DNA of 64,000 bases, from contig CASDPB010000047.1 in NCBI GenBank assembly GCA_949282305.1, forward strand, positions 155,514 through 219,513, written 5' to 3'. The notes beneath the pieces were generated by a model that saw nothing but the letters and a program-made list of their open reading frames with translations, was not told where the DNA came from and did not search any database. Position 1 is the stretch's first letter. Each line of letters starts with the position of its first letter. Shown one piece after another: positions 11,742 to 47,164 of the stretch. This DNA is from an uncultured Lentisphaeria bacterium. Its GTDB lineage: Bacteria > Verrucomicrobiota > Lentisphaeria > Victivallales > UBA1829. A program made the translations under genes and the position numbers.

Positions 11742-13769
11742 TCAGTCTTCCTCTTCGCCGTGTTCTGCCTTGAACTTGGCGATGATCTCGTTCGCCACAT
11801 TCGGCGGCACCATTTCATAACGTGCAAAAGACATCTCGAAGGTCCCCTGCCCCTGTGTCATGGAACGCAGTTCCGTAGCGTATTTCGCGAGTTCCCCCTG
11901 CGGAACTTCCGCCAGCAGAACCTGCATACCGTCCTCGGCGTCCATTCCAAGAATACGTCCCCGCTTATGGTTCAGATGTCCGGTGACGTCTCCCATGTAT
12001 TCTCCGGGAATGATGATTCTGACGGACATCACAGGTTCAAGCAGAACCGGATTTGCCTTGCCCATCGCCTCGTTGAATGCGCGACGCGCGGCAATCTTGA
12101 ACGCCATTTCGGAAGAATCGACGTCATGGAACTTGCCGTCGTAAACCGTGACCTTGACATTTTCCACCATGCACCCGGCAAGCGGTCCGCGCTCCATCGC
12201 CTCAAGCACGCCTTTCTCAACCGCCGGGATGAAGTTCTTCGGGATAGCGCCGCCGACCACCTCATTCGCAAACTGGAATTTCTCTTCGCAAGGCTCAATC
12301 CGCAGGTAAACTTCCGCAAACTGACCGTGCCCGCCGGACTGTTTTTTATGGCGGTAATGTCCTTCCGCCCTGCCGTTGATCGCCTCGCGGTAGGGAACTT
12401 TCGGCGTCGAAACGATGACATCGGTTTTGGTCAGCTCTTTCAGGCGGCGCAAGGCGATCTGGAGATGCTGTTCGCCCATGCCGCTGAAAATGGATTCATG
12501 CGTCTCGTGATTCGTGGCAATATGAAGCGTCGGGTCGCATTCGCACAGCCGCTGCAGACCGGACATGATTTTTTCCTCCTCCCCGCTCTTCGCCGCGGTA
12601 ATCGCATAGGAGATCACCGGAGCGGGAAACTCCATCGGCGACATCACATGACATTGACTGTTTTCACCGAGCGTGTCTCCGGTTTTCGTCGCCCGCAGCT
12701 TCGCCACGCCGCAGATACATCCGGAACATGCCTCCTCTATCGGGATCTGAGTCTTTCCGTTCAGGAAAATCAGATGCCCGAGACGCTCCTTCGTGCCGTT
12801 GTTCAAGTTCAGAATGTCGCTGTTCGCCCTGATCTTTCCGGTAAGAACGCGGAAAAAGGCGAACTGCCCGACATGCGGATCAATGACTGTCTTGAAAACA
12901 AATGCCGCCGCGGGACCGTCCTCCGCGGGCTTTACAATCGTGCCGTCGCTGGCGACGCGCGTGCGTTCCAACGGACTCTGGCTGATATTGATGATGCCGT
13001 CCATCACTTCACAGACGCCGATATCCTTCGCGACGCTTCCGGCGAAAATCGGAATCAGGGCGCCGCTCTTGAGCGCATCATGGAGTCCGCGCAGAATTTC
13101 CGCCTCGGTCAGCGGTTCGCCGCCGAGATAGCGTTCCATCAGTTCTTCATCCGCTTCCGCCACAGTGTCAAGCAGGATCTCCTTGCATTTCGCCGCAATG
13201 TCTTTCAGCTCCCCGGGAATCTGCGCAGGATCGCCGAGCACACTCACGACACGTTCCAGTTTTGCGCCGCTGCCGACCGGCAGGGTCATGGGGACGGCGA
13301 CGTTTTTGCCGTATGCCTCCTGAAGCTGCTGTACAACCTTGAAAAAGTCGGCATTGTCACGATCCATACGGTTCACAAAAGCAAGCTTCGGAATGTCAAA
13401 CGCCTTCCCGAGTTTGAATGCGCGGACAGCGCCGATTTCCAGTCCGTTTGCGGCGTCAAGCACGACCAGCGCCGCGCCGCTGGCGCGATAAGCGGGAATC
13501 ACCTCCCCGATAAAAGGCCCGTAACCGGGAGTATCCGAGAAAAAGAAACGAAAACCGTTCCATTCGCAGCTCATGTATGAAGTATAAATGCTGGACCCTT
13601 TTTCCTGCTCATCCGGAGTAAAATCCGATACGCTTGTCCTGGTATCGACGGAACCCAGGCGCTCCACGGCTTTCGCCTTGTAGAGCATCAGGTCGCAAAG
13701 AGAGGTTTTACCGCTGCCGCTGTGGCCCGCCACAACGAAATTTCTGATTTTGGATGACTCGAACTTCAT
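11742..13769 (-). CDS. elongation factor G paralog (EF-G-like GTPase)
   Basis: 675 aa. G motifs AGHSGSGKTS, DTPGY and NRMD, then EF-G-like domains II-V (e.g. GAIPKNFIPAVEKG, EPVMSVRIIIP). Not in an str-operon context. Confidence 0.85.
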   Translation of the reverse strand: MKFESSKIRNFVVAGHSGSGKTSLCDLMLYKAKAVERLGSVDTRTSVSDFTPDEQEKGSSIYTSYMSCEWNGFRFFFSDTPGYGPFIGEVIPAYRASGAALVVLDAANGLEIGAVRAFKLGKAFDIPKLAFVNRMDRDNADFFKVVQQLQEAYGKNVAVPMTLPVGSGAKLERVVSVLGDPAQIPGELKDIAAKCKEILLDTVAEADEELMERYLGGEPLTEAEILRGLHDALKSGALIPIFAGSVAKDIGVCEVMDGIINISQSPLERTRVASDGTIVKPAEDGPAAAFVFKTVIDPHVGQFAFFRVLTGKIRANSDILNLNNGTKERLGHLIFLNGKTQIPIEEACSGCICGVAKLRATKTGDTLGENSQCHVMSPMEFPAPVISYAITAAKSGEEEKIMSGLQRLCECDPTLHIATNHETHESIFSGMGEQHLQIALRRLKELTKTDVIVSTPKVPYREAINGRAEGHYRHKKQSGGHGQFAEVYLRIEPCEEKFQFANEVVGGAIPKNFIPAVEKGVLEAMERGPLAGCMVENVKVTVYDGKFHDVDSSEMAFKIAARRAFNEAMGKANPVLLEPVMSVRIIIPGEYMGDVTGHLNHKRGRILGMDAEDGMQVLLAEVPQGELAKYATELRSMTQGQGTFEMSFARYEMVPPNVANEIIAKFKAEHGEEED

Positions 13770-13916: not shown

Positions 13917-13989
13917 ATCCGATTTCATCCGTAAAATCAAATTTTATGCGGGAAACGGCATCCGGGCGACGCGCCGCCGCCCGTTCCGG

Positions 13990-15270
13990 TCATTTTTTCT
14001 CCGAAGCCGGCGGGGAAAGCAGTGCCGGCGACGCCGACACCATGCCGGAAGTATCGCTGCACTGCTGGAAAACACGCAAATCAAAAGTCGGCAGGATCGC
14101 CAGCAGATGGTCGAATATGTCAGACTGAATGCCCTCGTAAACAATCCAGCGCGTATCATTCGTGAAACAGTAAATCTCCAGCGGTATTCCGGTCGCACCG
14201 GGCTGGAGCTGGCGAACCAGCACAATCATGTCCTGGCGAATGTGCGGATTGTTCCGCAGATAGTGTTCGACATACGCGCGGAACGTCCCCAGATTCGTCA
14301 CACGCCGTTCATTGATCGGCCTGGCGCCTTTCGCTTCAAGTTCCGCATTCCAGGCGCTCAATTCCTCACGCTTCTTCTGCAGATAATCATCCAGCAGCAC
14401 AAATTCCTCCAGACGCCTGATCTCGGCGTCATCAAGAAAACGCACGCTGCGCTGGTCAAGATAAAGCGCGCGCTTGATGCGGCGCCCGCCGATTTCCTGC
14501 ATTCCGCGCCAGTTCTTGAAGGAGTCCGTAATGAGTTTGCGGATCGGAATCGTGGTAATGGTCTTGTCCCAATTCCGCACCTTGACCGTATGAAGCGCAA
14601 TTTCAATCACGTCGCCATCCGCGTTAAGGCTCGGCATCTCAATCCAGTCACCGATCCGCACCATGTCGTTGGAACCGATCTGAACGCTTGCCACAACAGA
14701 GAGGATCGTATCCTGAAAAATCAGCATCAGAACCGCCGCCATCGCACCCAGCCCGGAAAGCAGGATCAGCGGACTGCGGTTCACCAGAACCGCAATCATC
14801 AGAATGGCTGCCACCACACCGATAAAGATTTTGAAGAGCTGCAGATACCCCTTGATCGGCTTGCTTGCCGCATCCGGACGCCGGCGGTAGGCAATGTCCA
14901 CCAGATCCAGAATCTTCCCCAGCGCCAGCGCCGCACTCAGCACTATAAACGCGGAACACACGTTGCGTATGATGACGACAAGCGTCTCGCGAATGCCGGG
15001 AATCATCGCCGCGCCCCCCGCAAGCACAAGAGCCGGAACAATATTCGCCAGATGCGAGATGACGGACAGTCTTATCGGCGTTTCCTCGCTCTCTCCGGAC
15101 GGCAGAGCCCGCATCAGCCGGTCCACACCGTGCAACAGAATCCGTTTCGTAATCCAGTTGACAATCCATGCGATGACGATGAGCACACATGCGGCAATCG
15201 CGCTGTATGCCCACGGATAGGGCGACAGGTTTTCCTTCAATTCATGCAGATATTCCAAAAGCGTATTCAT
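13990..15270 (-). CDS. mechanosensitive ion channel, MscS family
   Basis: 426 aa. N-terminal TM helices plus the MscS beta-domain pattern DMVRIGDWIEM...GDVIEIALHTVKVRNWDKTITTIPI. GGAGG SD before the ATG. Confidence 0.85.
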   Translation of the reverse strand: MNTLLEYLHELKENLSPYPWAYSAIAACVLIVIAWIVNWITKRILLHGVDRLMRALPSGESEETPIRLSVISHLANIVPALVLAGGAAMIPGIRETLVVIIRNVCSAFIVLSAALALGKILDLVDIAYRRRPDAASKPIKGYLQLFKIFIGVVAAILMIAVLVNRSPLILLSGLGAMAAVLMLIFQDTILSVVASVQIGSNDMVRIGDWIEMPSLNADGDVIEIALHTVKVRNWDKTITTIPIRKLITDSFKNWRGMQEIGGRRIKRALYLDQRSVRFLDDAEIRRLEEFVLLDDYLQKKREELSAWNAELEAKGARPINERRVTNLGTFRAYVEHYLRNNPHIRQDMIVLVRQLQPGATGIPLEIYCFTNDTRWIVYEGIQSDIFDHLLAILPTFDLRVFQQCSDTSGMVSASPALLSPPASEKK

Positions 15271-15465: not shown

Positions 15466-17034
15466 TCACCTGTCGGACTCTGTTTCCCGGTCAACGATTG
15501 AGAACTGATCCAGTATGATCTCCTTCCGGTTGTTTCCCGGCGGAGTCAGCCAGACAACAACCCGTTTGGAATCATAAGGAGTAAAGACGCACCCCTTTTC
15601 CCCGATGTTGAAAAACATCTGCACCTCTCCCCAGCAGCGCAGATGAAGCAGTCCCCATTTATCCGGGAAAACACGCCCGTCCGCATTCGGCTCCGCTTTT
15701 TTTCTTTCAGTCACCACGCCGACGGCATCGCCATCTCTCAGAGCCGCCGGAACCACCTGCCGCATTCTTTCCAGTTGAAACAGGTTGCCGTCATCCAGTC
15801 TGGCGTTCACAGTGTAAATGGCACTCGTCAGTATCCAGAGCAATATTGCAGTCAGCAGAAGAGCCCATCTCCATTTCCTCCCGTTCCGGCACCAGTTCGC
15901 CAAAATAGGCAGGGCCGCGCAAAAGAGCAGCATCCCGACGGAAATCACGGCAATCAGATAGCGGTGAATGACTCTCTCCGGATAAACAATCGGATGAATG
16001 TTGAAAATAATATAGCAGTGGCACAGATACGCCCCCAGAAAAGCAACGGCAAGAAAACGTCTCCTCAGATCCCCGTGGCATATCAGCACAAACGCGGCAA
16101 TACATCCCAGCGCAACGGAAAGATTCTGCGGAATGAAACTGTAATATTTCCCGTCCCAGCGGAATTGACGCAGGAAGCTGAACAGATACTCCAGGACGGA
16201 AGGGGCTTCCGGCTGGTTCTCCACAATCAGATGCGTATGGCAGAGCAGCTCATAACGTCCCAGTCTGCAGCCGTAAATTCCGTTGAGAATCAGAGTCTCC
16301 AGTCCGATGCCGGCAATGCAGCAGAAGAAGAAAAGCAGCATCCCCGGTGTAAGATGAACTTTTTTCCAGCGGAAACAATATTTTTCTGCCGGAGCAAACG
16401 CCAGAAACAAAAATATCCCCGGCGCCCAGAAAAAGGAGGTTTCCTTACAGCCGTAGGCAATCACCAGACAGCCCCCCGCAACCGCCATCAGCCAGCTTTG
16501 CCGCTGTTTCCCGTCAATAAAACGCAAAGTCACCAGCAGCGTCAGCAAAATCCAGACCGTGGCGGGAACCATCGGCAGAAACTGCGTCCCCTCATGGATG
16601 ATGACCGGATAAAAAGCATACAGCAGGACGACAAGCGGCGCCATGGCTGCGCTGAGAATCCGCCGCGCCAGAAGAAAAAGCACGAGCCCTCCTGCGCAAT
16701 AGCATAAAATCGGATACAGATAATACAGATAAATGGAATAACCGAAAAGTTTGCAGAACGCAACAGCAGGCCAGATCAATCCCCAGCGCAGCAAATGATG
16801 ATCCGGCTGCAACGGCAGAAACGTCCCGTTCTCAAGAAATACGCGGATCAGGAACCACTTATGGATTGCATCCCCTGATTTTGCAATAAACTGCAGGTTG
16901 CAGACAATAACAAACAAAAGGAACAAAAAGACCCACAGGCACTGCCGTCCCACGGGAAGTTTTCCGAACTGATCCGCAGCAATAGAAACTCTCATTACAA
17001 GTTTTTCATAGCAATGAACGATTTTCTGTTTCAT
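15466..17034 (-). CDS. polytopic membrane protein, probable GT-C-type (ArnT/PMT-like) glycosyltransferase
   Basis: 522 aa with many hydrophobic segments over the first ~400 aa and a soluble C-terminal tail. The ATG overlaps the upstream stop (ATGA at 17031-17034). Family call rests on architecture and context, not a strong motif. Confidence 0.5.
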   Translation of the reverse strand: MKQKIVHCYEKLVMRVSIAADQFGKLPVGRQCLWVFLFLLFVIVCNLQFIAKSGDAIHKWFLIRVFLENGTFLPLQPDHHLLRWGLIWPAVAFCKLFGYSIYLYYLYPILCYCAGGLVLFLLARRILSAAMAPLVVLLYAFYPVIIHEGTQFLPMVPATVWILLTLLVTLRFIDGKQRQSWLMAVAGGCLVIAYGCKETSFFWAPGIFLFLAFAPAEKYCFRWKKVHLTPGMLLFFFCCIAGIGLETLILNGIYGCRLGRYELLCHTHLIVENQPEAPSVLEYLFSFLRQFRWDGKYYSFIPQNLSVALGCIAAFVLICHGDLRRRFLAVAFLGAYLCHCYIIFNIHPIVYPERVIHRYLIAVISVGMLLFCAALPILANWCRNGRKWRWALLLTAILLWILTSAIYTVNARLDDGNLFQLERMRQVVPAALRDGDAVGVVTERKKAEPNADGRVFPDKWGLLHLRCWGEVQMFFNIGEKGCVFTPYDSKRVVVWLTPPGNNRKEIILDQFSIVDRETESDR

Positions 17035-18974
17035 ACCATATCCATTTCTTTTTTTATCTGGAGTTTTTCTTTGAATTTGACAATACTGTCAGCCAGGCGG
17101 GCAGAATCTCCGCGCGGACAGAAAATAATTTCCTCCGGATTCGCCTTAAAGAGCTCATGATTTGCCGGTGTATCTCCTAGAATGACAGGTTTCTTCATAG
17201 CTCTGTAAATATATGCTTTTCCCGGAATAGTGCGTGCAGCTTTCCTTATTTCCGCATTGAAATGTCCGGCAAGACAGAGGTCTGCACGTGAAATCTCAAA
17301 GGCAAGTTCCCGTTGACTTAGATAATCAAAAATAACAGCATTTGCAGAGGCAAGCCGTTTCTTCTGCATCTCCTTCAAAGGTCCAATAAGGATAAAACGA
17401 ATATCTGTTCTCTTTTTCAGAAGCAATATCGCATCAATAATCACTTCCACACCTTGAAGGGGTAAAATTGAGCCGAAATAAAGAACATTCAGTATTTTTC
17501 CGTCATAATCATATTTCGGATAAAGTGCCGGATCATAATAGGTTCTGTCAGCCTCAAGATACAGAACTTTAATCTTATTCTTGTCCGCCTTGAGAAATTT
17601 GATAAAATAACGACTGTGCGCCCTGGTATCGCAAATTATCTCATCGGCAAGGCGCAACGTGAGAACATCCAGACGATAAAGCAGATGTGCCGCCGGAGAT
17701 CTCCTCCGAAATATCTTGCGATCAGAAATAAAGGTATCATAAAGTGAAATGAAGAAGTCAATCGTAATCTTTTTGTGTCTAAACTTCCAATACCAGAAAG
17801 GCAGCACAAGCTGTGGTGAAAAACCACAGAAGAAATGATCAATTTTTCCCGCGGAAGTAAATAATAAATGCCAGTAGACATAAATCAGCCTCGCAAAATA
17901 ACTTCTGCCTGAACTTGCAATCCGGCTTACCCGCCGTCCACTGCTGTTCAATAATTTTATCTCCTGGGTATTGCGCAGATAATCACGATTTTTAGTGGAC
18001 ACAAAAAGAACTCTTTCGGATGAAGCATCTTGCCCCGGTGAACAATCGGTTTTGAATAAAATCTGTGTCATTCGCAATATCTTGATTCCAATAAAGGCAA
18101 ATACCTCACCGACAATCGTCCAGCATCTCGCTGCAACAAGCAATACGATCAACTGTGCCGCTTCCAGTGCTCCTGTTCCGAAAAACTGCAATACATATTC
18201 TCTTACTCCCAGCCCATTCGGTGTCGGACTTAAGAACCCAGCCACCCAGGCAACCGGATAGGCGACCCCAAGACGCGCCGCCGCCCCGAAGCTGGTATCT
18301 CCTATCGAAATGCAAAGCACTGCAAGCCCCATGCCGACACTGAACCACATTAAGATATATCCGACAAACAAGCCATAGACCGCAGTATTGCTCAACGAAT
18401 ATTCTGACTGGGATTTAAAAAGCCGGCAGAGCAACTTAAATCCCAGTCGGATAAAAAAAGGCAGAAATGCAAACGCTGAAATGCCGCAAGCAAAAACCGC
18501 AACTCCAGCAATGGCTGAATTCTTGAAAATGAACGGCAGAAAAAACAGCAGAAAGAAAAGTGATGACATAATCTGAAATAGATATTCAACGCAAATCGCT
18601 CCGGATGTCCGGCAGGGAGATGCTCCGCGCTTTATGCACCATACAGCCTTGCCGACAATATTCCAGATACCACCGGGAATGTAACGGGCAAATGCACTGG
18701 TAATGAAAATATCAATATAATCCAGCTTACTGATGTTTTCTTTTCTGTCATACTGTATATACATCCACAAGTATGCCATAAAAATAAAAGAAACACCATA
18801 CATCAGCGAGGCAGCAAGAAACAGAGCAATTCTGATATTCTTTACTGATTGCGACAGTTCCTGATATGAACCGGAAAAATTCCGATACACAAAATAAAAC
18901 ATGACAATGGCAAGAAACAACCCCAAAAGACGTAAAACTGTCTTTAACGGAAACTTGGATTCTTTGCGAATCAT
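17031..18974 (-). CDS. fusion protein: flippase-like TM domain (LPG_synthase_TM/UPF0104 type) + C-terminal GT4-type glycosyltransferase
   Basis: 647 aa. The N-terminal ~300 aa are polytopic, with FARYIPGGIWNIVGKA and SPTPNGLGVREY motifs seen in the MprF-like flippase-type domain. The C-terminal half has a GT1/GT4-like pattern (YFGSILPLQGVEVIIDA...IPGKAYIYRAMKKPVILGD). ATGA overlaps at both ends. Confidence 0.65.
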   Translation of the reverse strand: MIRKESKFPLKTVLRLLGLFLAIVMFYFVYRNFSGSYQELSQSVKNIRIALFLAASLMYGVSFIFMAYLWMYIQYDRKENISKLDYIDIFITSAFARYIPGGIWNIVGKAVWCIKRGASPCRTSGAICVEYLFQIMSSLFFLLFFLPFIFKNSAIAGVAVFACGISAFAFLPFFIRLGFKLLCRLFKSQSEYSLSNTAVYGLFVGYILMWFSVGMGLAVLCISIGDTSFGAAARLGVAYPVAWVAGFLSPTPNGLGVREYVLQFFGTGALEAAQLIVLLVAARCWTIVGEVFAFIGIKILRMTQILFKTDCSPGQDASSERVLFVSTKNRDYLRNTQEIKLLNSSGRRVSRIASSGRSYFARLIYVYWHLLFTSAGKIDHFFCGFSPQLVLPFWYWKFRHKKITIDFFISLYDTFISDRKIFRRRSPAAHLLYRLDVLTLRLADEIICDTRAHSRYFIKFLKADKNKIKVLYLEADRTYYDPALYPKYDYDGKILNVLYFGSILPLQGVEVIIDAILLLKKRTDIRFILIGPLKEMQKKRLASANAVIFDYLSQRELAFEISRADLCLAGHFNAEIRKAARTIPGKAYIYRAMKKPVILGDTPANHELFKANPEEIIFCPRGDSARLADSIVKFKEKLQIKKEMDMV

Positions 18975-19957
18975 TTTTCTTCTCCGTCAAACAGCTTTGC
19001 CCTTCTCATTGTATATTGTATGTCTTCAAGCATCATCCGATTGACAGCAAGCAGGTCGGCGACAAAAGCAATCATCCCGGCAATCACCCCAGTCAGCAGA
19101 AAAAGTGCCGCTAAAAGCAAAGATTGTATTTTTCCACTTCCAGCACCCTGAAAAAAATACCAGAGGAAACGGCAACCAAGAATGGAACCAATGCAGAAAC
19201 AACCAATCCCCAGGGTCATGAAAAAGCGGAACGGATAATAAAGAATCGCAATGCGGATCATGGTGAAAGCGGAACGCTTGATATATTGCGGAATGCTTTT
19301 CACCAGCCGAGATGGACGAAGATCCTCATTGACATGAATCGGCACGCACAGAATTCCAAGATTCTTGTAACCAGCCTGAATGATTGTCTCCAGCGTGTAG
19401 GTATAATTATTGAAGACATTCATCCGCAAGGCAGCCTCCCGGGAAAGAGCCCGGAATCCGCTGGGAGCGTCCTCCACCACCGTGCCGGAAAATTTCCGCA
19501 CCATGAAACTTCCGAATTTCTGAAGCATCTTCTTGAGCGGCGAAAAATGCCGGATCTCCGAAATCGGACGGGTTCCAATCACATACTGCGCCTTTCCGTC
19601 CAGAATCGGCTGTGTCAGCAGGGGAATATCACGCGCATCATATTGATTGTCCGCATCCGTATTGACGATCACATCCGCATCCGCCGACAGAGCCGCATGA
19701 AGCCCGCTCATGAATGCCCGCGCCAGACCGAGATTCGCATGATGCCGGACAATATGCTCCACTCCGCACGCCGCCGCCACCTCCGCCGTATTATCAGTCG
19801 AACCGTCATCAATCACCAGAAATTCCACCTTTTGAAAACCGGGCACTTCACGCGGCAGCTCCCGGATTGCCAGCGCCAGTGTCTCAGCTTCATTATAACA
19901 TGGAATCTGGATCACCAGTTTCCGCTCATGTCGCATAATATATTTTATGTTATTCAT
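18971..19957 (-). CDS. GT2 glycosyltransferase, polyprenyl-phosphate sugar synthase type (DPM1/ArnC/GtrB-like)
   Basis: 328 aa from ATG 19957 (GGGAG SD; ORF open to 20041). Motifs QIPCYNEAETL, VIDDGSTDNT and NTDADNQY, plus C-terminal TM helices. Confidence 0.85.
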   Translation of the reverse strand: MNNIKYIMRHERKLVIQIPCYNEAETLALAIRELPREVPGFQKVEFLVIDDGSTDNTAEVAAACGVEHIVRHHANLGLARAFMSGLHAALSADADVIVNTDADNQYDARDIPLLTQPILDGKAQYVIGTRPISEIRHFSPLKKMLQKFGSFMVRKFSGTVVEDAPSGFRALSREAALRMNVFNNYTYTLETIIQAGYKNLGILCVPIHVNEDLRPSRLVKSIPQYIKRSAFTMIRIAILYYPFRFFMTLGIGCFCIGSILGCRFLWYFFQGAGSGKIQSLLLAALFLLTGVIAGMIAFVADLLAVNRMMLEDIQYTMRRAKLFDGEEK

Positions 19958-20164
19958 CAAAAACTCCCTGCCGGAATAATAACTTTTAACACCACCTTCA
20001 ACATCAGACAAACCCAGGTATTTCCACTCAAAATACACCACATAAAATATATTATGCGAACTTAAATTCAGCCTCAGCCGACACTTGGAAACAGCCTGCA
20101 GTTAATAAAAATATTACAGAAAATAATTTTTTCAAGCAACGAGCAGTTTTTTATAAAAAGATAT

Positions 20165-22954: not shown

Positions 22955-23428
22955 TCACTTTTGACAGCTTGCAACCAAAGATTTCAAAAAACGAAAATAA
23001 TTCATCAGATGGCTTTTCTCCCAGCCTGTCCGTTCATAAAATTTTCCGGCGGGCAGATTCGTTTCATCGCATAAAAGCTGCATTCTGGTGATTCCGCGCC
23101 CGCGCGCCCACTGTTCCGCCTCCTCAAGAAAACGGCTCCCGATTCCGCGCCTGCGGAATTCCCGGCTTACAACAATATCTTCGATCATTGCCGAAAGACC
23201 GCCCTCCGCAGTGGAAATCAGAGTTTGGACACTGCATGTGCCCACAATGTTCCCTTCGCATTCGGCGGCAAGGAGCAGACAGTCCGGATTTTCCAGGATC
23301 ATGCGGAGGGCGCGCATCTGCTTTGCCCGATCCGGTTCAAAATCCACTTCGAGCGACAAAAGTTCATGTAGCATCTCCACCATCGGCGGAAGATCGCTTT
23401 CCACAGCCCTTCGGATCACAACCTTCAT
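22955..23428 (-). CDS. GNAT-family N-acetyltransferase
   Basis: 157 aa. Acetyl-CoA binding pattern VSREFRRRGIGSRFLEEAE. The start overlaps the dxr stop (4 nt). Confidence 0.8.
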   Translation of the reverse strand: MKVVIRRAVESDLPPMVEMLHELLSLEVDFEPDRAKQMRALRMILENPDCLLLAAECEGNIVGTCSVQTLISTAEGGLSAMIEDIVVSREFRRRGIGSRFLEEAEQWARGRGITRMQLLCDETNLPAGKFYERTGWEKSHLMNYFRFLKSLVASCQK

Positions 23429-26783: not shown

Positions 26784-28676
26784 ATGACGGCAGAAAAAAA
26801 ACAGATACACTGGGAAAAACATCCGCATCTTTATGGCGGCGTCATTATTTTTCTTGCCTGGTTCCTGCTGCATGTCTTTACGATCTCGTGGGAACTGCCG
26901 CACACCATGCCGCCGGAAACAGACGGCATCTCCCCCGACACGTCTCTCAATGCGCGCGCAATGATGGCGAAGGAAACATTCAAGTACCCGCCGCTGCAAT
27001 ATCTGACGGTGGACTGGCTGACGCCGCGGATCGCGGAAAAAGGAATGACGCCCGAGCAAATCCTGGAACACCGGTCCGCACGCCTTGAAACAATGCGCTG
27101 GATCACGGCGTCGCAGGAACTCCTGACCGCATTCCTGATCCTCTTTTTCGCCGTCGGAATCCTTTCGCTTCCCCTGCTTCCCTCCCTCTGCGCGGCGCTC
27201 TCCTTTCTTCTGCTGCCTCTTTCGCTTTTCTACTCCCAGACAACCAACATGGACATGCCGTGCACATTCTGGTTTTTTGCCTCCGTCACTTGCGCGGCAT
27301 TTGCGGAATCTTTTGCCGAACGGAAAAGATTCTACCTCCCGCTTTCTCTGGCGACAGGCATTCTGATCGGCTGCGCGTTCTGCACCAAGGATCAGCTCTA
27401 TGCGGCATATCTGCTTCCCGCCGCGGCATTTGCAATCTGGAAATTCCGGCAGCACGGAAAAATCGCGCAGACTCTCCTCCCGTTTCTTCTGTGGTTTGCA
27501 GGATTCCTGATTTCAACCGCGTCCATCTACCTGCTGATCGGAAAAGAGACCTTTCTTCCGCATTTCAAATGGATTACCGGAAGCGGTTCCGATGCGTCCT
27601 ATGCCATGGTCGCCGACTCCGTCTCCGGACATCTGCGCCTCCTTCTTCTTCAGCTTCAGGATACGGGGACGGCTCTTGACTGGCCGCTTCTGCTGTTCTT
27701 CCCGCTCATGATTATCCTGTTCGCCGGAAAACCGTCTGCCCTCAGGGAAAACAAAGCGATACTGCCTCTGGCCGCCTTCACTCTGCTGACGGTGTTTTCC
27801 ATTCATCTCTTTTTCTGCCAGGCGGTCCGTTACACCTATCCCCGCTACCTCGTCCCCGTCCTGCCGTTTTTCTGTCTGCTCGCGGCATTGCTCTGGCATC
27901 AGGGACTTTCCCGGAAAGCGGTACGGTACACATTTCCCGCACTTCTTTTCCTGCAATGCGCCATTGCGGTTCAATTTCTCTGCGGACTGAATCATACGCC
28001 GCGGTCGCAGCTGGTACGTCTCATCGAAAACGACAGGGAATCCCTGTCGCAAATTCGGATGAACACGGTTTCCGCAGCCGTCGGAGCGCGTTACATTCTG
28101 AATGAGGACGGGTCGATGCACCCGAAGAAAAAAATACAGCCATGGGGCGCGCAGCTGGGGCTCAGCCGTTTCGGGATTTATGACATCATGCCCGACGACA
28201 TCTCCATTTTCATGGTTGCTCCGGCATTGCTCGTTTCCGAATCGCCGGCGGAAATCCTGCAGGATTCCGGTTTTCAGCTCCGTCAGACTTTCCATTTTCC
28301 GTCCCCCCTGATCCCGACTCTGTACCGTCATGATGCGCATCCGCTCTTTCTGTATGCCGCGGCGCAGCGTCCCGCCGTCCGGGATTCGCTGGCGGATTTC
28401 AGAAAAGAATCCCTTGAAATGCAGATGATCAAGCTGGCATATCTTGTCAGCAGAAAGCCGCCGCTGAGCAATCAGAAACTTGCGGAAATCGGCAGGGCGC
28501 TTGCGGCGTTCCATCCTCCGGACACTGCAAACTACGACCTGCCGCATTTCGTGCATCTTTTCCTGTATTTCGCCTACCGTGCCGCGGGGCGCGGCAAAGA
28601 CGCGGAGATGCTCCGGGACTATCTCCGCCGGGCGTTCCCGCAGGAGTCGCTGCCGCCTCAGATGAAACAAGCCTAA
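26784..28676 (+). CDS. polytopic membrane protein, probable GT-C (GT39/PMT_2-like) glycosyltransferase with a soluble C-terminal domain
   Basis: 630 aa. The first-loop KYPPLQYL resembles the conserved PPL-x-Y(W/L) block of ArnT/PMT_2 proteins. Many TM segments to about aa 400, then about 230 aa soluble. Confidence 0.5.
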   Translation: MTAEKKQIHWEKHPHLYGGVIIFLAWFLLHVFTISWELPHTMPPETDGISPDTSLNARAMMAKETFKYPPLQYLTVDWLTPRIAEKGMTPEQILEHRSARLETMRWITASQELLTAFLILFFAVGILSLPLLPSLCAALSFLLLPLSLFYSQTTNMDMPCTFWFFASVTCAAFAESFAERKRFYLPLSLATGILIGCAFCTKDQLYAAYLLPAAAFAIWKFRQHGKIAQTLLPFLLWFAGFLISTASIYLLIGKETFLPHFKWITGSGSDASYAMVADSVSGHLRLLLLQLQDTGTALDWPLLLFFPLMIILFAGKPSALRENKAILPLAAFTLLTVFSIHLFFCQAVRYTYPRYLVPVLPFFCLLAALLWHQGLSRKAVRYTFPALLFLQCAIAVQFLCGLNHTPRSQLVRLIENDRESLSQIRMNTVSAAVGARYILNEDGSMHPKKKIQPWGAQLGLSRFGIYDIMPDDISIFMVAPALLVSESPAEILQDSGFQLRQTFHFPSPLIPTLYRHDAHPLFLYAAAQRPAVRDSLADFRKESLEMQMIKLAYLVSRKPPLSNQKLAEIGRALAAFHPPDTANYDLPHFVHLFLYFAYRAAGRGKDAEMLRDYLRRAFPQESLPPQMKQA

Positions 28677-29818: not shown

Positions 29819-30652
29819 ATGAAAAAACTCGGATTCATCGATCTCTTTATCGACGAATGGCACGCAAACAATTATCCGGCATGGATCAAGGAAGCGAAAC
29901 GCGGAACGGAATTTGAACTTGCCTATGCCTGGGAAAAAGCTCCGCGCAACGGGCGTCCGCTTGAAAAATGGTGCGAAGATTTCAGTGTAACGCCGCTCGG
30001 AAGCATTGAGGAAGTCGTAGAAAAATCGGATGCGGTTTTCGTGCTTGCGCCGTCCAATCCGGAAGTTCACCGCGAACTGGCTGAAATTCCCCTGAAGAGC
30101 GGTAAGCCGGTCTTTGTGGACAAACCGTTCGCTCCGTCAAAAGCCGATGCGGAGGCAATGTTTGAACTTGCGGCAAAGCACAACACCCCGCTGATGTCAA
30201 GTTCCGCCCTCCGTTTCTCCACCGAACTGAACGCCTATCGTAATCAGCCCGGCACGACTTATATCGAAACAACCGGTGGAGGAAGTTCCTTCTGGGAATA
30301 TTCGATTCACCAGGTGGAAATGATCGTTTCCGTGCTCGGGACAGGCGCAAAACGCATCATGCAGTGCGGCGCGAACGGCGTGGAACACATGGTCATACAA
30401 TACGGAGACGACCGCAGGGCATCCCTGACTTATACTTCCAATGCCCCGTTCACGGTCAATCTGGTTCACGAGGGAAAAATGATTGTCAACCCCCAGTGCT
30501 CCGATTTCTTCCCGGTTCTTCTTTCGGAGATTCTGGACTTCTTCGCAACAGGAAAATCTCCGATTGATGCCGCTCAGACGATTGAAATCGCAGCACTTGT
30601 CGCCGCCGGAATCAAAGCTCTCGAAGCAAAAGACGTCTGGCACAATCTCTGA
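29819..30652 (+). CDS. Gfo/Idh/MocA-like protein (atypical N-terminus lacking a clear GxGxxG)
   Basis: 277 aa. KKLGFIDLFIDEWHANNYPAWI start and ...PVFVDKPFAPSKADAEAMFELA, resembling the EKP/DKP block of this family. AAGGAGG SD. Confidence 0.55.
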   Translation: MKKLGFIDLFIDEWHANNYPAWIKEAKRGTEFELAYAWEKAPRNGRPLEKWCEDFSVTPLGSIEEVVEKSDAVFVLAPSNPEVHRELAEIPLKSGKPVFVDKPFAPSKADAEAMFELAAKHNTPLMSSSALRFSTELNAYRNQPGTTYIETTGGGSSFWEYSIHQVEMIVSVLGTGAKRIMQCGANGVEHMVIQYGDDRRASLTYTSNAPFTVNLVHEGKMIVNPQCSDFFPVLLSEILDFFATGKSPIDAAQTIEIAALVAAGIKALEAKDVWHNL

Positions 30653-39230: not shown

Positions 39231-39938
39231 TCAAAGTTCTTTTTCAACTACGGAAGAATGTTCTCCGCCGCCGGAAAAGCGGGAATAGGCATGACGCACG
39301 ATGCGCCCCGACTCCAGATAGATCACATCCTCGGCGATGTTCGTGGTGCAGTCCGCAATCCGTTCCAGACTCCGCGAAACGCCGAGCAGCGCCTGATAGG
39401 CGGCGACATGTTCCGGATCAGTCCGGACACGTTCGGGAAAATGTTCCGAATAACGTTCATGCAGCTCGTCAATCACATCATCCCCCATGATGACCTCCGT
39501 GGCGAGCGGGACATTGTGGCTGGAAAGCGCCTTGATCGAAGAATCCAGCATCCTGCGCACGGAAGCGGTCATGGCTTCAAAATCGACCGGAAGCGGCGGC
39601 ACGACGGAATCAGGCTTCGACTCCGTTGTAAACTCCGCAATGTCCACGGCAAGATCGCCGATGCGTTCCAGCTCGCCATTGACCTTCAGAACAGTGATAA
39701 TGTAACGGAGATCCCCCGCGACGGGCTGATAAAGGGCAAGCAGCTTGAGGCACTCTTCCTCGATCATGATTTCATTCCGGTCGATGTCTTCGTCTTTTTC
39801 AACGGTTTTCGCGGCAGCCTGCACATTGCCGTTCAAGAACGCCTTGACCACATTTCCCAGCATTTCGGCAACATCCACAGCCTGAGAGTAAAGTTTCTGG
39901 TCCAGAGCGCGAATCTCTTTGTAAAGATGTGTTTTCAT
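39231..39938 (-). CDS. phoU: phosphate signalling modulator PhoU
   Basis: 235 aa. Duplicated PhoU repeats, each containing an ERI(G/A)D motif. Confidence 0.9.
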   Translation of the reverse strand: MKTHLYKEIRALDQKLYSQAVDVAEMLGNVVKAFLNGNVQAAAKTVEKDEDIDRNEIMIEEECLKLLALYQPVAGDLRYIITVLKVNGELERIGDLAVDIAEFTTESKPDSVVPPLPVDFEAMTASVRRMLDSSIKALSSHNVPLATEVIMGDDVIDELHERYSEHFPERVRTDPEHVAAYQALLGVSRSLERIADCTTNIAEDVIYLESGRIVRHAYSRFSGGGEHSSVVEKEL

Positions 39939-39958
39939 TTCCGTATTTCTCCTTTGTA

Positions 39959-40738
39959 TCAGCCGAAACGTCCGGTGATGTATTCTTCCGTTTTCTTATT
40001 GGATGGATTGGTAAAAATCTTCGCCGTCGTGTCATGTTCTATGATGCGCCCTTTGTAGAAAAAGGCGGTGTAGTCCGAAATTCGCGATGCCTGCTGCATG
40101 TTGTGCGTGACGATCACGATGGTGAACCTCTGGCGCAGTTTCAGGAGCAGTTCCTCGATTTTCAGCGTGGCGACGGGGTCGATTGCGGAGGTCGGTTCGT
40201 CGAGCAGAAGAATATCCGGCTCGGCGGCAATCGTACGCGCAATGCAGAGACGCTGCTGCTGTCCTCCGGAAAGTGCCAGTCCGCTGCCGTTGAGTTTGTC
40301 CTTGACTTCATCCCAGAGGGATGCGCCGCGCAGAGCCGTTTCCACCCGTTCGGCGATCTCGCTTTTTCTGAGCTTGAAGTGAAGCCGCATTCCGTAGGCA
40401 ACATTGTCGAACACGGACATCGGGAACGGGGTCGGACGCTGGAAGATCATACCGACTTTGCGCCGCAGTTCCAGCACATCGACATTGCGGTCAAGAATGT
40501 TCTGTCCGTCGATGACGACCTCGCCTTCGACGCGCTGTTCGCGGTAAAGTTCAAAGATGCGGTTGTAAATTCTCAGATGAGTGGATTTTCCGCATCCGGA
40601 GGGCCCGATCACAGCGGTGATGCGGTTTTCCGGGATTTCCAGATTGTTGTCAAACAGCGACTGGTGGTCTCCGTAAAAGAAATTGAGGTTCTTCGCGGCG
40701 ATTTTGATTTTCGGTTTTTCTTCGTTTTGAATGGTCAT
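39959..40738 (-). CDS. pstB: phosphate ABC transporter ATP-binding protein
   Basis: 259 aa from ATG 40738 (ORF open to 40780). [10 protein letters not shown], Walker [23 protein letters not shown]. Confidence 0.95.
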
Positions 40739-40739
40739 G

Positions 40740-41612
40740 TCAAGCATTTTTCTTCTCCCTGCAGATGTAACGGAGGACAATGTTCATCAGCAGCAATGTT
40801 ATCGTAATCAGGAATGCGGCGCCCCATCCCATCGCGTGCATCTCTTCGCTCGGAGAGTTGGTGGCGTATTCGTTGATGAGGACAGGCAGATTCGCGGTCG
40901 GCTGTGTGAAATAATGCCACGGCCAGGCATCGCTCCAAAGCGCCGTAAACAGAAGGGGAGCAGTCTCCCCGGCGGTTCGGGCGACGGCAAGCAGGATGCT
41001 CGTCACGAGCCCGCCTTTGATGGACCGGCAGACAATGCACAGAACGGAACGTGCGCGCGTCATGCCCAGAGCGAGGGAAGACTCATGAACAGCCGCAGGC
41101 ACCATCAGGATCATATCCTCCGTCGTGCGCATGACAACCGGAAACATGATGATCGCAAGGGAGAGCGATCCGGCAAGCCCCGAACGATGCCCGGTCGTGA
41201 CAACCAGCAGCGCATATACAAACACACCTGCGAGAATGGAAGGCAGCCCCATCATCACGTTGACGGAAAACCGGATCAGATTGCCGAGCTTGCTGTTCTG
41301 TCCGTAAATGGCAAGCCCGATTCCCCCGGCAAATGCGGCAGGCACTCCGATCAGAACCGCCATCAAGGTAATGAAAATGGTTCCGAGGATCGCGTTTCCG
41401 ACTCCGTTGTCAGGCTCGCCCGCAGGTTTGCTCCCGCAGAAAATAAAATCCAGACTGATCACCCCCGCGCCGTTTCTGATGACCGACCAGAGAATCCACA
41501 ACATGCAGAAAACCGCAAGCGCGACGCCCGCCACGGAAAGAAGCCACATCACCGAGTTCAGAAGTTTCCGGAAGAACATCGGGCGTCTGGCGACAGTAGT
41601 TGTCTCACTCAT
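40740..41612 (-). CDS. pstA: phosphate ABC transporter permease PstA
   Basis: 290 aa, polytopic. EAA-like loop [16 protein letters not shown] overlap with pstC. Confidence 0.9.
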
Positions 41613-42544
41613 TTTTCACCTCTCTTTCTGTCCATATTCTTCAGGTAAAGCTGCGCGACGGCCTGGACAGAGAGGGACAGCAGCATCAGGATCAGCCCGA
41701 GTGCGAAAAGAACACTGCGGAGAAGACCGTCCGCCTCATTGAAATTGTTTGCAAGAGTCGCGGCAATCGTGGTTCCGCTCCCGAACAGGGAAGTCGGGAG
41801 TTCCGCAATGCCGCCGATCACGAACAGGACCGCCATCGTTTCCCCGAGGGCGCGTCCGAGTCCGATAAACACTGCGCCGAAAATCCCGCGGATGCCATAG
41901 CGCAGAATGATGTGCGAAGCCACCTCCCACGAGGTACAGCCAATCCCGTAGGCGGCTTCCTGAAGCGGAGCGGGAGTCATGCGGAACACATCGCGCATGA
42001 CGGCGCAGATATAAGGAAGAATCATCAGGGCGAGGATGAGTCCGGCGGTCAGGAAGCCGAACCCGTTGTAATCCTCGCCGAAGAATGGAACTTTCCCGAG
42101 GTAAAGCGTATCAGCCAGAAACGGCTGGATGTAATCCTGCATGACGGGAGCCAGGACAAAGAGTCCCCACATACCGTAAATGATGCTGGGAATCGCCGCC
42201 AGCAGATCCAGCGCCTGGCTCAGCGGATACCCGAGCCATTTCGGCGCGTTCACGAGAAACAGCGCCGTGATGAAGCCCAGCGGGGCGGCGATGCCCACCG
42301 CAATCACCGTTGTCACCAGCGTTCCGGTGATCGCGGGAAGCGCCCCGTAAAGCTGCTGGACGGGATCCCACTGCGTTGACAGGATGAATTTGAAACCGAA
42401 TGTCCGGAATGCCTCGACCGAGTTGCCCCCCAGCAGGATAAAGAATCCGGCCGCAACCACCAGCGGGATGAAGGTGCACAGGAGCGTCAGGATCATGAAC
42501 ATCCGGTCCCGGATATTTTCTTTCTTTCCGAACTGATAAAACAT
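41609..42544 (-). CDS. pstC: phosphate ABC transporter permease PstC
   Basis: 311 aa, polytopic. QEAAYGIGCTSWE loop. Position between pstS and pstA. Confidence 0.9.
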   Translation of the reverse strand: MFYQFGKKENIRDRMFMILTLLCTFIPLVVAAGFFILLGGNSVEAFRTFGFKFILSTQWDPVQQLYGALPAITGTLVTTVIAVGIAAPLGFITALFLVNAPKWLGYPLSQALDLLAAIPSIIYGMWGLFVLAPVMQDYIQPFLADTLYLGKVPFFGEDYNGFGFLTAGLILALMILPYICAVMRDVFRMTPAPLQEAAYGIGCTSWEVASHIILRYGIRGIFGAVFIGLGRALGETMAVLFVIGGIAELPTSLFGSGTTIAATLANNFNEADGLLRSVLFALGLILMLLSLSVQAVAQLYLKNMDRKRGEK

Positions 42545-45585: not shown

Positions 45586-45604
45586 AATCGCTCAATCTCC
45601 TCTG

Positions 45605-47095: not shown

Positions 47096-47164
47096 AGAAA
47101 CTCCTTTGTTTCCTTGTTTGGTTTTCGGCATTTCCGCCGTCGATACCAATAAGATAAACCCTGA

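Follow-up and report, generated by a model that had tools for sequence, protein, structure and literature searches.

A small invertible segment at the translation start of a putative flippase-glycosyltransferase operon from an uncultured Lentisphaeria bacterium

Compact operons in which a family 2 glycosyltransferase (GT2) is paired with a polytopic glycosyltransferase of the C fold (GT-C) are known from three-component systems of periplasmic glycosylation, namely GtrA/GtrB/Gtr(type), which glucosylates O-antigen, ArnC/ArnEF/ArnT, the Gram-positive CsbB/GtcA/YfhO and GacI/GacK/GacL, and ORF15/14/12 of C. youngae (PMC11127046), and the Gtr systems are serotype-converting. As for genetic switches, the nearest one described to that reported here is the switch of cwpV in C. 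difficile, an invertible region between a fixed promoter and the open reading frame (ORF), on which the recombinase RecV acts from elsewhere in the genome (PMC2784873). Our subject is a cassette of three minus-strand genes in a 64,000-nt stretch of DNA from an uncultured Lentisphaeria bacterium (contig CASDPB010000047.1; the whole stretch is called the window, and its own numbering is used throughout). The cassette shares GT2, GT-C and compactness with the three-component systems and is, like the Gtr loci, a surface-variation locus; it differs from them in having an MprF-type UPF0104 protein as its flippase candidate, a fused family 4 glycosyltransferase (GT4) and an inversion at a translation start. 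The first gene encodes the GT2 (ORF 18971-20041 from a mechanically assigned GTG, the biological start being ATG 19957 or ATG 19936), the middle gene of 1944 nt a fusion of a PF03706 membrane domain with the GT4 (17031-18974), and the third the GT-C (15466-17034). An initial annotation, made from the sequence alone, had already noted that these genes are chained by ATGA overlaps (TCAT on the plus strand), and the re-check found them at the same coordinates, 18971-18974 and 17031-17034; such overlaps are frequent in operons and by themselves unremarkable. What it had overlooked is that the first gene has an invertible switch at its start: an 89-bp segment overlapping that translation start inverts in natural populations, and the cell probably switches a surface decoration on and off by this means.

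The invertible segment (19951-20039) lies between the arms of a perfect 20-nt inverted repeat, the gene-distal arm at 20040-20059 (TCGCATAATATATTTTATGT in minus-strand reading) and the gene-proximal arm at 19931-19950 (ACATAAAATATATTATGCGA), the latter containing ATG 19934-19936. In the orientation present in the window, termed state A, the segment carries a Shine-Dalgarno (SD) sequence, GGGAG, at 19964-19968 and an ATG at 19955-19957. This was the sole perfect inverted repeat of at least 16 nt, with arms within 800 nt, in the 64 kb, and 0 were expected from shuffled sequences. The arms were 100% conserved in L083-L087 and L098, contigs of related lineages whose flanks are about 86% identical; for 40 of 40 arm positions to be retained at that level of identity, the expectation is 0.86^40 = 0.002. 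The segment is 89-90 bp long, and its sequence is 56-73% identical outside one conserved end. Both orientations were found. In contig L001, from another sample, the sequence beside the proximal arm is the segment's exact reverse complement, and the 6951 nt downstream contain 2 mismatches. When the GT2 in its short form of 321 aa was looked up by exact match, no record was returned, and therefore state B in the window's own lineage rests on 67 nt of L001. Contig L002, with 0 mismatches, begins exactly at the inner edge of the proximal arm, as do L099 and L100. Of the sister-lineage contigs, L083 and L084 are oriented like the window. A metagenome scan for the arm sequence turned up L098, whose segment is the exact reverse complement of that in L083 and whose 563 nt of upstream flank contain 1 mismatch. 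L085-L087 carry the segment inverted. The switch was not present in the more distant, 54% identical cassette of L088, nor in the Firmicute relatives described below.

How the inversion might act was suggested by what the segment carries. The gene-proximal end of state A reads GGGAG-N6-ATG-AAT-A, in frame with the GT2, and this end with its SD and ATG is kept in three lineages, together with about 10 first bases of the opposite end in L083 and L085. State A adds an SD and a 7-codon extension to the gene, whereas state B keeps ATG 19936 alone, without an SD, and this proximal-arm ATG lines up with the N-terminus of the L088 homologue, which has no switch. The computed pairing with the anti-SD sequence was -7.7 kcal/mol for state A versus +1.6 kcal/mol for state B, and an SD-like motif was found in about two thirds of the window's genes. 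When a model leader was folded, the arms paired into a 20-bp stem of -23.8 kcal/mol in both states, and ATG 19936 has an unpaired probability below 0.001 in both; in state A the SD is about 50% and ATG 19957 about 27% unpaired. From this sequence logic we infer a translation-initiation switch of which state A, that of the window, would be ON, with the segment supplying an SD and an ATG in frame with the GT2. State B would be OFF or low, with no SD and the ancestral ATG sequestered by the 20-bp stem that the leader RNA forms. Through the ATGA overlaps the state would be carried downstream, at least to the GT-C gene; the fusion gene has an SD of its own and the GT-C gene has none. A recombinase encoded outside the 64-kb window would perform the flip. 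A fixed promoter upstream of the segment is faintly suggested by a promoter-like site, TTGAAA-16-TATTTT, on the minus strand at 20108-20135, upstream of and outside the segment in a spacer (20042-20164) that had been described as very AT-rich and is 28.5% GC. A similar TTGAAA-17-TATTTT occurs at the same place in L083 and L085; blastn homology, however, begins only at 20074. An Rfam scan of the leader returned no family. An upstream ORF in state A (ATG 20041-20043 within the distal arm, 28 codons, its TGA overlapping ATG 19957 as TGATG, 19957-19959) was considered and dropped, as the corresponding frame in L083 stops immediately.

The enzymes assigned to the three genes by the initial annotation, namely a GT2, a flippase-like transmembrane (TM) domain fused to a GT4, and a GT-C, were all supported when families were assigned with Pfam. 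The GT2 (18971-19957, minus strand; 328 aa from ATG 19957 or 321 aa from ATG 19936), of the polyprenyl-phosphate glycosyl synthase type, matched PF00535 (Glycos_transf_2) with 78.8 bits and, among sequences in the PDB, dolichol phosphate mannose synthase 5mlz (1.6e-10) and ArnC 9hwj (4e-10). Its nearest NCBIfam models were AglJ, the best, then PpgS and ArnC, all far under cut-off. DDGSTD and DAD motifs are read directly in its sequence, and behind the catalytic domain there are two C-terminal TM helices (residues 247-265 and 281-299). Judged by these features, the first gene product is a predicted membrane-anchored GT2 of the DPMS/ArnC/GtrB type.

The fusion protein comprises a UPF0104/PplT/MprF-type, flippase-like membrane domain (residues 1-307; 18054-18974, minus strand) and a GT4-like domain of the GT-B fold (residues 321-647 plus stop codon; 17031-18014, minus strand). 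Residues 16-286 matched PF03706 (LPG_synthase_TM) over profile positions 2-294 of 302 with 51.3 bits, versus a cut-off of 33.4, and residues 497-633 matched PF13692 (Glyco_trans_1_4) with 38.2 bits. The AlphaFold2 model, with a mean predicted local distance difference test (pLDDT) score of 90.9, has its helical membrane domain at residues 9-307, joined through a short linker to a GT-B domain; the membrane half is all-helical, at a pLDDT of about 90. In a profile search against the PDB, the fusion's SPxPxGxGxRE aligned to MprF (6lvf/7duw) with a non-significant E of 0.88, and a match to MshA was likewise non-significant; single-sequence PDB searches with the fusion and the GT-C gave nothing useful. 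With the GT4 domain, Foldseek found MshA, SenB, PglA, BshA and PimA, at E from 1e-10 to 1e-8 and target-normalised template modelling (TM) scores of 0.6-0.7. The EX7E motif in the C-terminal domain is canonical for GT4. It is lacking in this GT4 domain, which has an invariant RTIPGKAYIY (R581-TIPGK-AYIY-R591) in its place. None of the NCBIfam lipid-glycosyltransferase models matched the domain, the sole, weak match being to the WcaI family. Within the coding region of the membrane domain there is also a hairpin (18403-18451; 16 nt, 94% complementary, with a 17-nt loop).

The third gene product (15466-17034, minus strand) is a polytopic GT-C of the PMT_2 type with a C-terminal extracytoplasmic beta-rich domain. 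The initial annotation had been ready to give up its interpretation if this gene had no GT-C homology; it matched PF13231 (PMT_2) with 43.6 bits, versus a cut-off of 26.1, and its AlphaFold2 model (pLDDT 79, predicted TM score 0.82) matched GT-C enzymes exclusively among Foldseek hits of E < 1e-3, namely AglB, ALG9/12, PglB, STT3, Pmt4, AftB and PimE. After its first TM helix come the conserved motifs KSGDAIHKW (with D55) and PDHH..RW, which place acidic residues in the first outer loop. A paralogue with 63% identity to this enzyme stands alone, without GT2 or PF03706 partners, in L101 (8140-11714), L102 and L103, followed by a 539-aa GT2 of processive type and adjoining secretin and MacB-type genes; L103 is from the same sample series as L001 and L002 (consecutive ERZ accession numbers).

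Relatives of the cassette were sought among 5.8 billion proteins with a word-index search that scores its top 8000 candidates only. With the fusion as query it gave 23 matches, 11 of them full-length fusions, and with the GT-C 8. When 1.84 billion representatives were searched exhaustively with a profile, about four clusters of full-length fusions came up; each half on its own was strongly matched, by GT4-like proteins in the hundreds and by many PF03706 proteins, all of them standalone. Standalone homologues of the membrane half carry the source name "flippase-like domain-containing protein". The fusion is, then, rare among the proteins searched. The three-gene unit recurs in L083/L084 (fusion 87% identical), L085-L087 (86%) and L088 (54%), with a different upstream context in each and, except in L088, an MscS gene downstream. 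L094 has an unfused four-gene version, GT2, PF03706, GT4 and PMT_2. In Lachnospiraceae contigs (L095-L097) the order is an 861-aa membrane protein, GT2, PF03706, GT4 and UDP-glucose dehydrogenase, next to ChW/CHAP wall proteins, and in L089, from a low-GC Firmicute relative, the fusion lies between GT87 and GT2 genes in a wall-polysaccharide cluster with LCP and Bac_transf. The membrane proteins flanking the GT2-PF03706-GT4 module in these loci, 861 aa in L095 (4425-7010) and 949 aa in L089 (12373-15222), have no family match; the latter looks YfhO-like, and the two may be the GT-C equivalents of the Firmicute relatives. The UDP-glucose dehydrogenase gene adjacent in both Firmicute contexts hints at a sugar derived from glucuronic acid.

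That adjacent genes of these two kinds have fused several times independently, the fusion here being one instance, had also escaped the initial annotation. P0077 has its PF03706 and GT4 domains the other way round, elsewhere in the GT4 subfamily the fusion partner is a GT2 or a polytopic domain of unassigned family, and in a neighbour-joining tree of the membrane domain the fusions recur among unfused members. The window's clade in that tree, with fused and unfused members, is sister to, not nested in, a large Clostridia-type clade. That fusion has recurred, and in both orders, argues strongly for joint action of the GT4 and PF03706 domains. Among the subfamily members with another partner, P0015, P0014, P0038 and P0040 (L090:8001-10250) combine the GT4-like domain with a polytopic N-terminus of about 430 aa, in Firmicute-like loci with UDP-galactopyranose mutase; this N-terminus looks Wzx/MOP-like, but that it is a Wzx/MOP flippase found no support in Pfam, NCBIfam, the PDB or hhalign against RfbX and WzxC of E. 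coli.

The most informative variation was found within a single species. Contigs L099 and L100 are conspecific with L083, and a comparison of L099 (1-3600) and L100 with L083 (9025-13509) showed 94-99% identity in the flanks and across the opening 600 nt of the GT2 gene. Between the TM tail of the GT2 and a point about 300 nt short of the GT-C gene's end, the sequence was 55-72% identical or unalignable. This second allele has a PF03706-only gene, 45% identical to the membrane half of the fusion, and no GT4, and its GT-C is about 68% identical to that of the window. The breakpoints are sharp, one within the GT2 gene before its TM tail and the other about 300 nt before the GT-C stop codon, a pattern which shows what would be cassette replacement of the kind that serotype loci undergo. 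The second allele supports GT2, PF03706 and GT-C as a putatively complete unit, with PF03706 as the candidate flippase of the pathway, and shows the GT4 as an apparently optional extra whose presence co-varies with the type of GT-C and with the membrane tail of the GT2; the co-variation of this tail with the central cassette would predict a membrane complex.

Put together, these observations are best explained, in our opinion, by a phase-variable operon for the extracytoplasmic glycosylation of an envelope component, an explanation that we hold to be somewhat better than evenly supported. On the cytoplasmic face the GT2 would charge polyprenyl phosphate with a sugar, the MprF-type (UPF0104/PplT) domain would flip the lipid-linked sugar, and on the periplasmic face the GT-C would transfer the sugar to an envelope acceptor. 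The fused GT4 would add one cytoplasmic glycosylation to a lipid-linked substrate and hand it to its own flippase domain. In the version that we prefer, because the allele without GT4 keeps the other parts, the GT4 may extend the polyprenyl-phosphate sugar itself, so the donor of the GT-C would differ from that used by the GT4-less allele; this version is weakly held. The lipid-carrier logic of charge, flip and transfer that the initial annotation had proposed is thus still the best-supported reading, strengthened because the allele of the sister species consists of GT2, UPF0104 and GT-C only, and because the same neighbourhood has been predicted in archaea (PMC5898192). The GT4, an optional extra, lies outside the simple analogy to Arn and Gtr, a point that the initial annotation had not picked up. 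In the cassette there was no ORF or domain for a GtrA, SMR (ArnE/F), MATE or Wzx flippase, and PF03706 is the only candidate.

The composition of the locus had been reported to drop sharply, on hand counts of 22/60, 25/60 and 37/60 G+C that were exact on recount. Once GC and GC3 (the GC content at third codon positions) were computed, this held for the fusion gene, and the GT-C gene proved nearly normal. In 1944-nt intervals the background GC was 0.546 (standard deviation 0.019, minimum 0.497), and that of the fusion gene 0.421; against a mean GC3 of 0.631 (standard deviation 0.061) for 46 ORFs of the window, the fusion gene had 0.420 (z about -3.5), the GT2 gene 0.535 (about -1.6) and the GT-C gene 0.598 (about -0.5). 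Cassette GC3 also lies below that of the flanks in L083, L085, L088, L094 and L099. In L083 the values are 0.42, 0.38 and 0.46 versus 0.56-0.68 in the genes downstream, and in the GC-rich L094 they are 0.65-0.75 versus 0.86-0.87 in the flanks, with the GT2 gene not depressed; in Lachnospiraceae and low-GC hosts the composition of the module equals its surroundings. An exact 15-nt GC-rich direct repeat, GACGCGCCGCCGCCC, is found at 18272-18286, within the AT-rich fusion gene, and at 13968-13982, just downstream of the MscS gene, probably by chance.

By its IspG, RseP and Dxr proteins the window belongs in the Lentisphaerota. The closest species in the Genome Taxonomy Database (GTDB), represented by an uncultured Lentisphaeria metagenome-assembled genome (L003), shares 87% identity in IspG, 86% in RseP and 75% in Dxr with the window, the next relatives having 65% or less. 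It keeps dxr-rseP-ispG, and synteny ends exactly at the 3' end of ispG (window 20165, L003:11095), past which 10 kb of L003 held no cassette, MscS or EF-G-like gene; the genes there are unrelated ones, of which one alone matches elsewhere in the window (29822-30457). Between the window and L083, nucleotide homology is confined to 20074-15466 (86%) and 15330-13994 (85%, MscS), and from this shared homology it follows that cassette and MscS gene have travelled together since the lineages split while the outer flanks changed. The two diverge equally between lineages, at about 85-87% nucleotide identity. The 64-kb window had no tRNA, mobility gene, flanking direct repeats or att-like sites bounding the block, and the annotation's remark that no integrase, tRNA or insertion sequence flanks it held for the whole window (tRNA search, Pfam-scanned ORFs, integrase comparison). 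These data fit an acquisition long ago, or a surface locus whose AT bias has persisted. That the cassette was horizontally acquired long ago, as first suggested, is plausible on its foreign composition and differing contexts, and it would have been acquired before this species split from its sister species. Such indications of the donor's taxonomy as there are consist of a few source names (Lachnospiraceae, Clostridium) and context genes (LCP, ChW/CHAP). The equal divergence of the cassette and of an MscS gene of normal GC counts against a recent transfer. In sum, what the initial annotation had observed was real and its core interpretation largely right.

Several points weigh against the explanation that we favour. 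The ON/OFF assignment rests on sequence logic and the thermodynamic fold of an assumed transcript, and in that fold the 20-bp stem lies 5 nt downstream of ATG 19957, where it might hinder initiation in state A as well. The SD of the fusion gene means that coupling to this gene may be incomplete. The fixed promoter-like site has 9 of 12 consensus matches, and such sites are no more numerous than chance would give. No match to a serine or tyrosine recombinase or XerC/D-like integrase was found in the 64-kb window; a XerC/D-like integrase 3.5 kb upstream in L083 was considered as the invertase and dropped, being in neither L085 nor the window. The MprF fold was absent from the best 50 Foldseek matches obtained with the whole fusion, which were all GT4. 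We know of no PMT_2-type GT-C that uses a polyprenyl-monophosphate disaccharide as donor. The flippase activity of this UPF0104 subfamily is a prediction, as is that of HexF and GpgF, and the GT-B and UPF0104 pairs that have been studied experimentally make glycolipids (PMC12713373, PMC10128005).

As regards the switch, the two orientations could in principle be assembly artefacts of the inverted repeat, which would then be merely an RNA hairpin, and the evidence for inversion does come from assembled contigs rather than reads. We consider this extremely improbable: 20-nt arms are far shorter than the assembly k-mers (k87 and k141, from contig names), and therefore the orientation was fixed by arm-spanning reads; moreover, both states were found in independent samples and assemblers and in two lineages, with junctions exactly at the arms, and three contigs break exactly at the arm edge. 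A more substantial alternative is that the inversion acts on transcription, either through a promoter within the segment, of the fimS/Bacteroides type, or through a terminator or Rho site, of the cwpV/flgB type. The majority of known invertons operate in this way, and CwpV offers a precedent of a switch between a fixed promoter and the ORF (PMC2784873). In state B of the window, TTTCCA-16-TAAAAT, with its -10 in the arm, would even point toward the gene. This candidate was demoted once it proved unconserved in the sister lineages, its -35 being missing from L098 and L085 on direct reading, and no -35/-10 pair is common to the segments of the three lineages. Neither orientation showed a terminator-like hairpin with a U run, and the SD with ATG at one end is the sole conserved feature within the segment, all of which makes a transcriptional action rather unlikely and leaves translation initiation as our preferred reading of the switch. 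The origin of the cassette can be argued along similar lines. Had it been an ancestral, vertically inherited envelope locus, its low GC might reflect membrane-protein codons, low expression or diversifying selection, to which many O-antigen loci can be likened; such a history would accord with the equal divergence of cassette and MscS, their adjacency in four lineages, the missing mobility genes, tRNA and flanking direct repeats, the unaberrant GC2 and the normal GC3 of the GT-C gene in the window. Yet the GC3 of the fusion gene is 3.5 standard deviations low, and GC3 is largely independent of amino-acid content; it falls below the level of the flanks in hosts with a locus GC of 0.46-0.60, while the membrane-protein genes for MscS and RseP in the window have normal GC3. 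Further, the outer flanks differ from lineage to lineage, at ispG the cassette is missing from the closest GTDB species, homologue clusters are few (the 23 fusion and 8 GT-C matches among the candidates scored), and the sharp allelic replacement within a species indicates a region that recombines with foreign alleles. We accordingly regard strictly vertical descent as unlikely and keep to an old horizontal acquisition as the plausible history.

The identity of the lipid-linked substrate and of the acceptor is where the alternatives have most to offer. Following the logic of MprF, HexSDF and GpgSDF, the GT4 might glycosylate a membrane lipid (diacylglycerol, a glycolipid or phosphatidylglycerol) at the cytoplasmic face, the UPF0104 domain flip the product and the GT-C decorate it outside with the polyprenyl-phosphate sugar of the GT2, a scheme that resembles PimA/PimB followed by PimE and Ppm1 in mycobacteria. 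We regard this as a genuine though minority possibility. GpgS is a GT4 that forms N-acetylglucosaminyl-phosphatidylglycerol and GpgF a UPF0104 protein (PMC12713373), HexS and HexF make HNHDRG (PMC10128005), and MprF itself is a synthase-flippase fusion. In the fusion's own family, UPF0104 is repeatedly fused to GT4 and not to GT2, PimA is among the Foldseek neighbours of the GT4 domain, and the fusion of L089 adjoins a GT-C of GT87, the PimE family. Set against this, the sister-species allele without GT4 retains the flippase, which must there have another substrate, and a flippase occupied with a membrane lipid would leave the cassette with no other candidate for the polyprenyl-phosphate sugar. 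Nor is there a deacetylase in the cassette, unlike in hexSDF and gpgSDF, and the GT4 has no match to an NCBIfam lipid glycosyltransferase, its weak match being to WcaI-like enzymes, which act on polyprenyl-linked glycans. It has also to be asked whether the acceptor is a protein, with the PMT_2 enzyme O-mannosylating secreted or envelope proteins as do the actinobacterial Pmt or Pgf of S. mutans. The Pfam family is named for protein O-mannosyltransferases, Pmt4, STT3, PglB and AglB are among the Foldseek matches, and the best NCBIfam match of the GT2 is AglJ, of S-layer N-glycosylation. However, PF13231 also takes in ArnT-like transferases of lipid A and glycans, the TM-scores of 0.40-0.48 give no discrimination between subfamilies, and the conserved block has no candidate target protein; a protein acceptor is, to our minds, decidedly unlikely.

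Of the surroundings, the gene nearest the cassette is that of an MscS-family channel (13990-15270, minus strand; PF00924), downstream of the GT-C gene and with a GC3 of 0.68. It adjoins the cassette in L083-L087 and L099, is preceded by a promoter-like site at 15329-15302 in a consensus scan, and is probably its own transcription unit outside the operon. The window also has an EF-G-like paralogue at 11742-13769, a GNAT acetyltransferase gene (22955-23428) between dxr and rseP, which are adjacent and without it in L003, two adjacent genes with secretin domains (628 and 508 aa; 43699-47131, minus strand), and three ORFs without a Pfam match (26784-28676, 39258-40058 and 40731-41648).

The flipping of polyprenyl-phosphate sugars and of glycolipids is among the least-proven steps of envelope biogenesis, and the surface biology of the Lentisphaerota is essentially uncharted. 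The loci described here amount to natural genetic experiments, in which PF03706 occurs alone with GT2 and GT-C, beside a separate GT4, or fused to a GT4 in either order. On the boldest reading, which we regard as doubtful, they would be genetic evidence for PF03706 domains as the long-sought flippases of polyprenyl-phosphate sugars or glycolipids, and the bifunctional GT4-flippase would, like MprF, both "make and flip" its product, either a glycolipid or an extended polyprenyl-phosphate glycan. The inversion, with both of its states in gut metagenomes and in an uncultured phylum, appears to deliver or remove translation-initiation signals and not a promoter. Given phase variation together with allele swapping, the glycan would stand out as being under strong diversifying selection, from phage or host immunity for instance.

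It is in comparison with known systems that the locus is best appreciated. The archaeal UPF0104 proteins of arCOG00899 have AglD-like GT2 and PMT/STT3-like proteins as neighbours, AglD itself being a fusion of GT2 and UPF0104 (Makarova et al. 2015, PMC5898192). This is the same trio of GT2, PF03706 and GT-C-like protein, with PF03706 likewise predicted to be a glycolipid or carrier flippase (PMC5898192); here the host is a bacterium of the Planctomycetes-Verrucomicrobia-Chlamydiae (PVC) group and the fusion partner is a GT-B enzyme of GT4 and not a GT-A, and the archaeal role is itself a prediction. MprF, hexSDF of C. difficile (PMC10128005) and gpgSDF of P. aeruginosa (PMC12713373) are alike in joining a cytoplasmic lipid-modifying enzyme with PF03706, and a survey of PplT listed GT-B and PplT fusions among existing architectures (bioRxiv 10.1101/2022.03.11.483950). 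GT-B and UPF0104, fused here, are adjacent in L094 and L095-L097. Those systems differ in that the present fusion sits between GT2 and GT-C, with no deacetylase or aminoacyl-phosphatidylglycerol synthase; a polysaccharide deacetylase gene was found neither in the cassette nor in any relative examined, and the window's GT4 subfamily, without EX7E, had no match to models of the HexS/GpgS type with the tools used. The phosphatidylinositol mannoside and lipomannan pathway of mycobacteria has the same enzyme classes (PimA/PimB as GT4, Ppm1 as GT2, PimE/MptB as GT-C), with no sequence-level orthology and with flippases unknown there, and is a functional analogy only.

As to the switch, it shares with cwpV a promoter that seems to be outside the segment and a recombinase that is presumably encoded elsewhere, with fimS and the Bacteroides capsule loci the short repeats around a small segment upstream of a surface-structure gene, and with partial intergenic invertons an arm within a coding region (PMC10028968). 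The latter are mostly long shufflons that swap protein domains, unlike the 89-bp switch here (PMC10028968), and classic invertons carry a promoter or terminator, whereas the conserved payload here is an SD and a start codon. A purely translational inversion switch, joined to a bifunctional GT4-flippase with GT2 and GT-C, would constitute a minimal, phase-variable and allelically swappable pathway for a lipoglycan or surface glycan in a Gram-negative PVC gut bacterium, a proposal that in its entirety we regard as doubtful. What the locus appears to present is known parts newly combined: the three-component glycosylation of the Gtr kind, an MprF-type flippase fused to a GT4, and an inversion switch, at a locus that is allelically variable.

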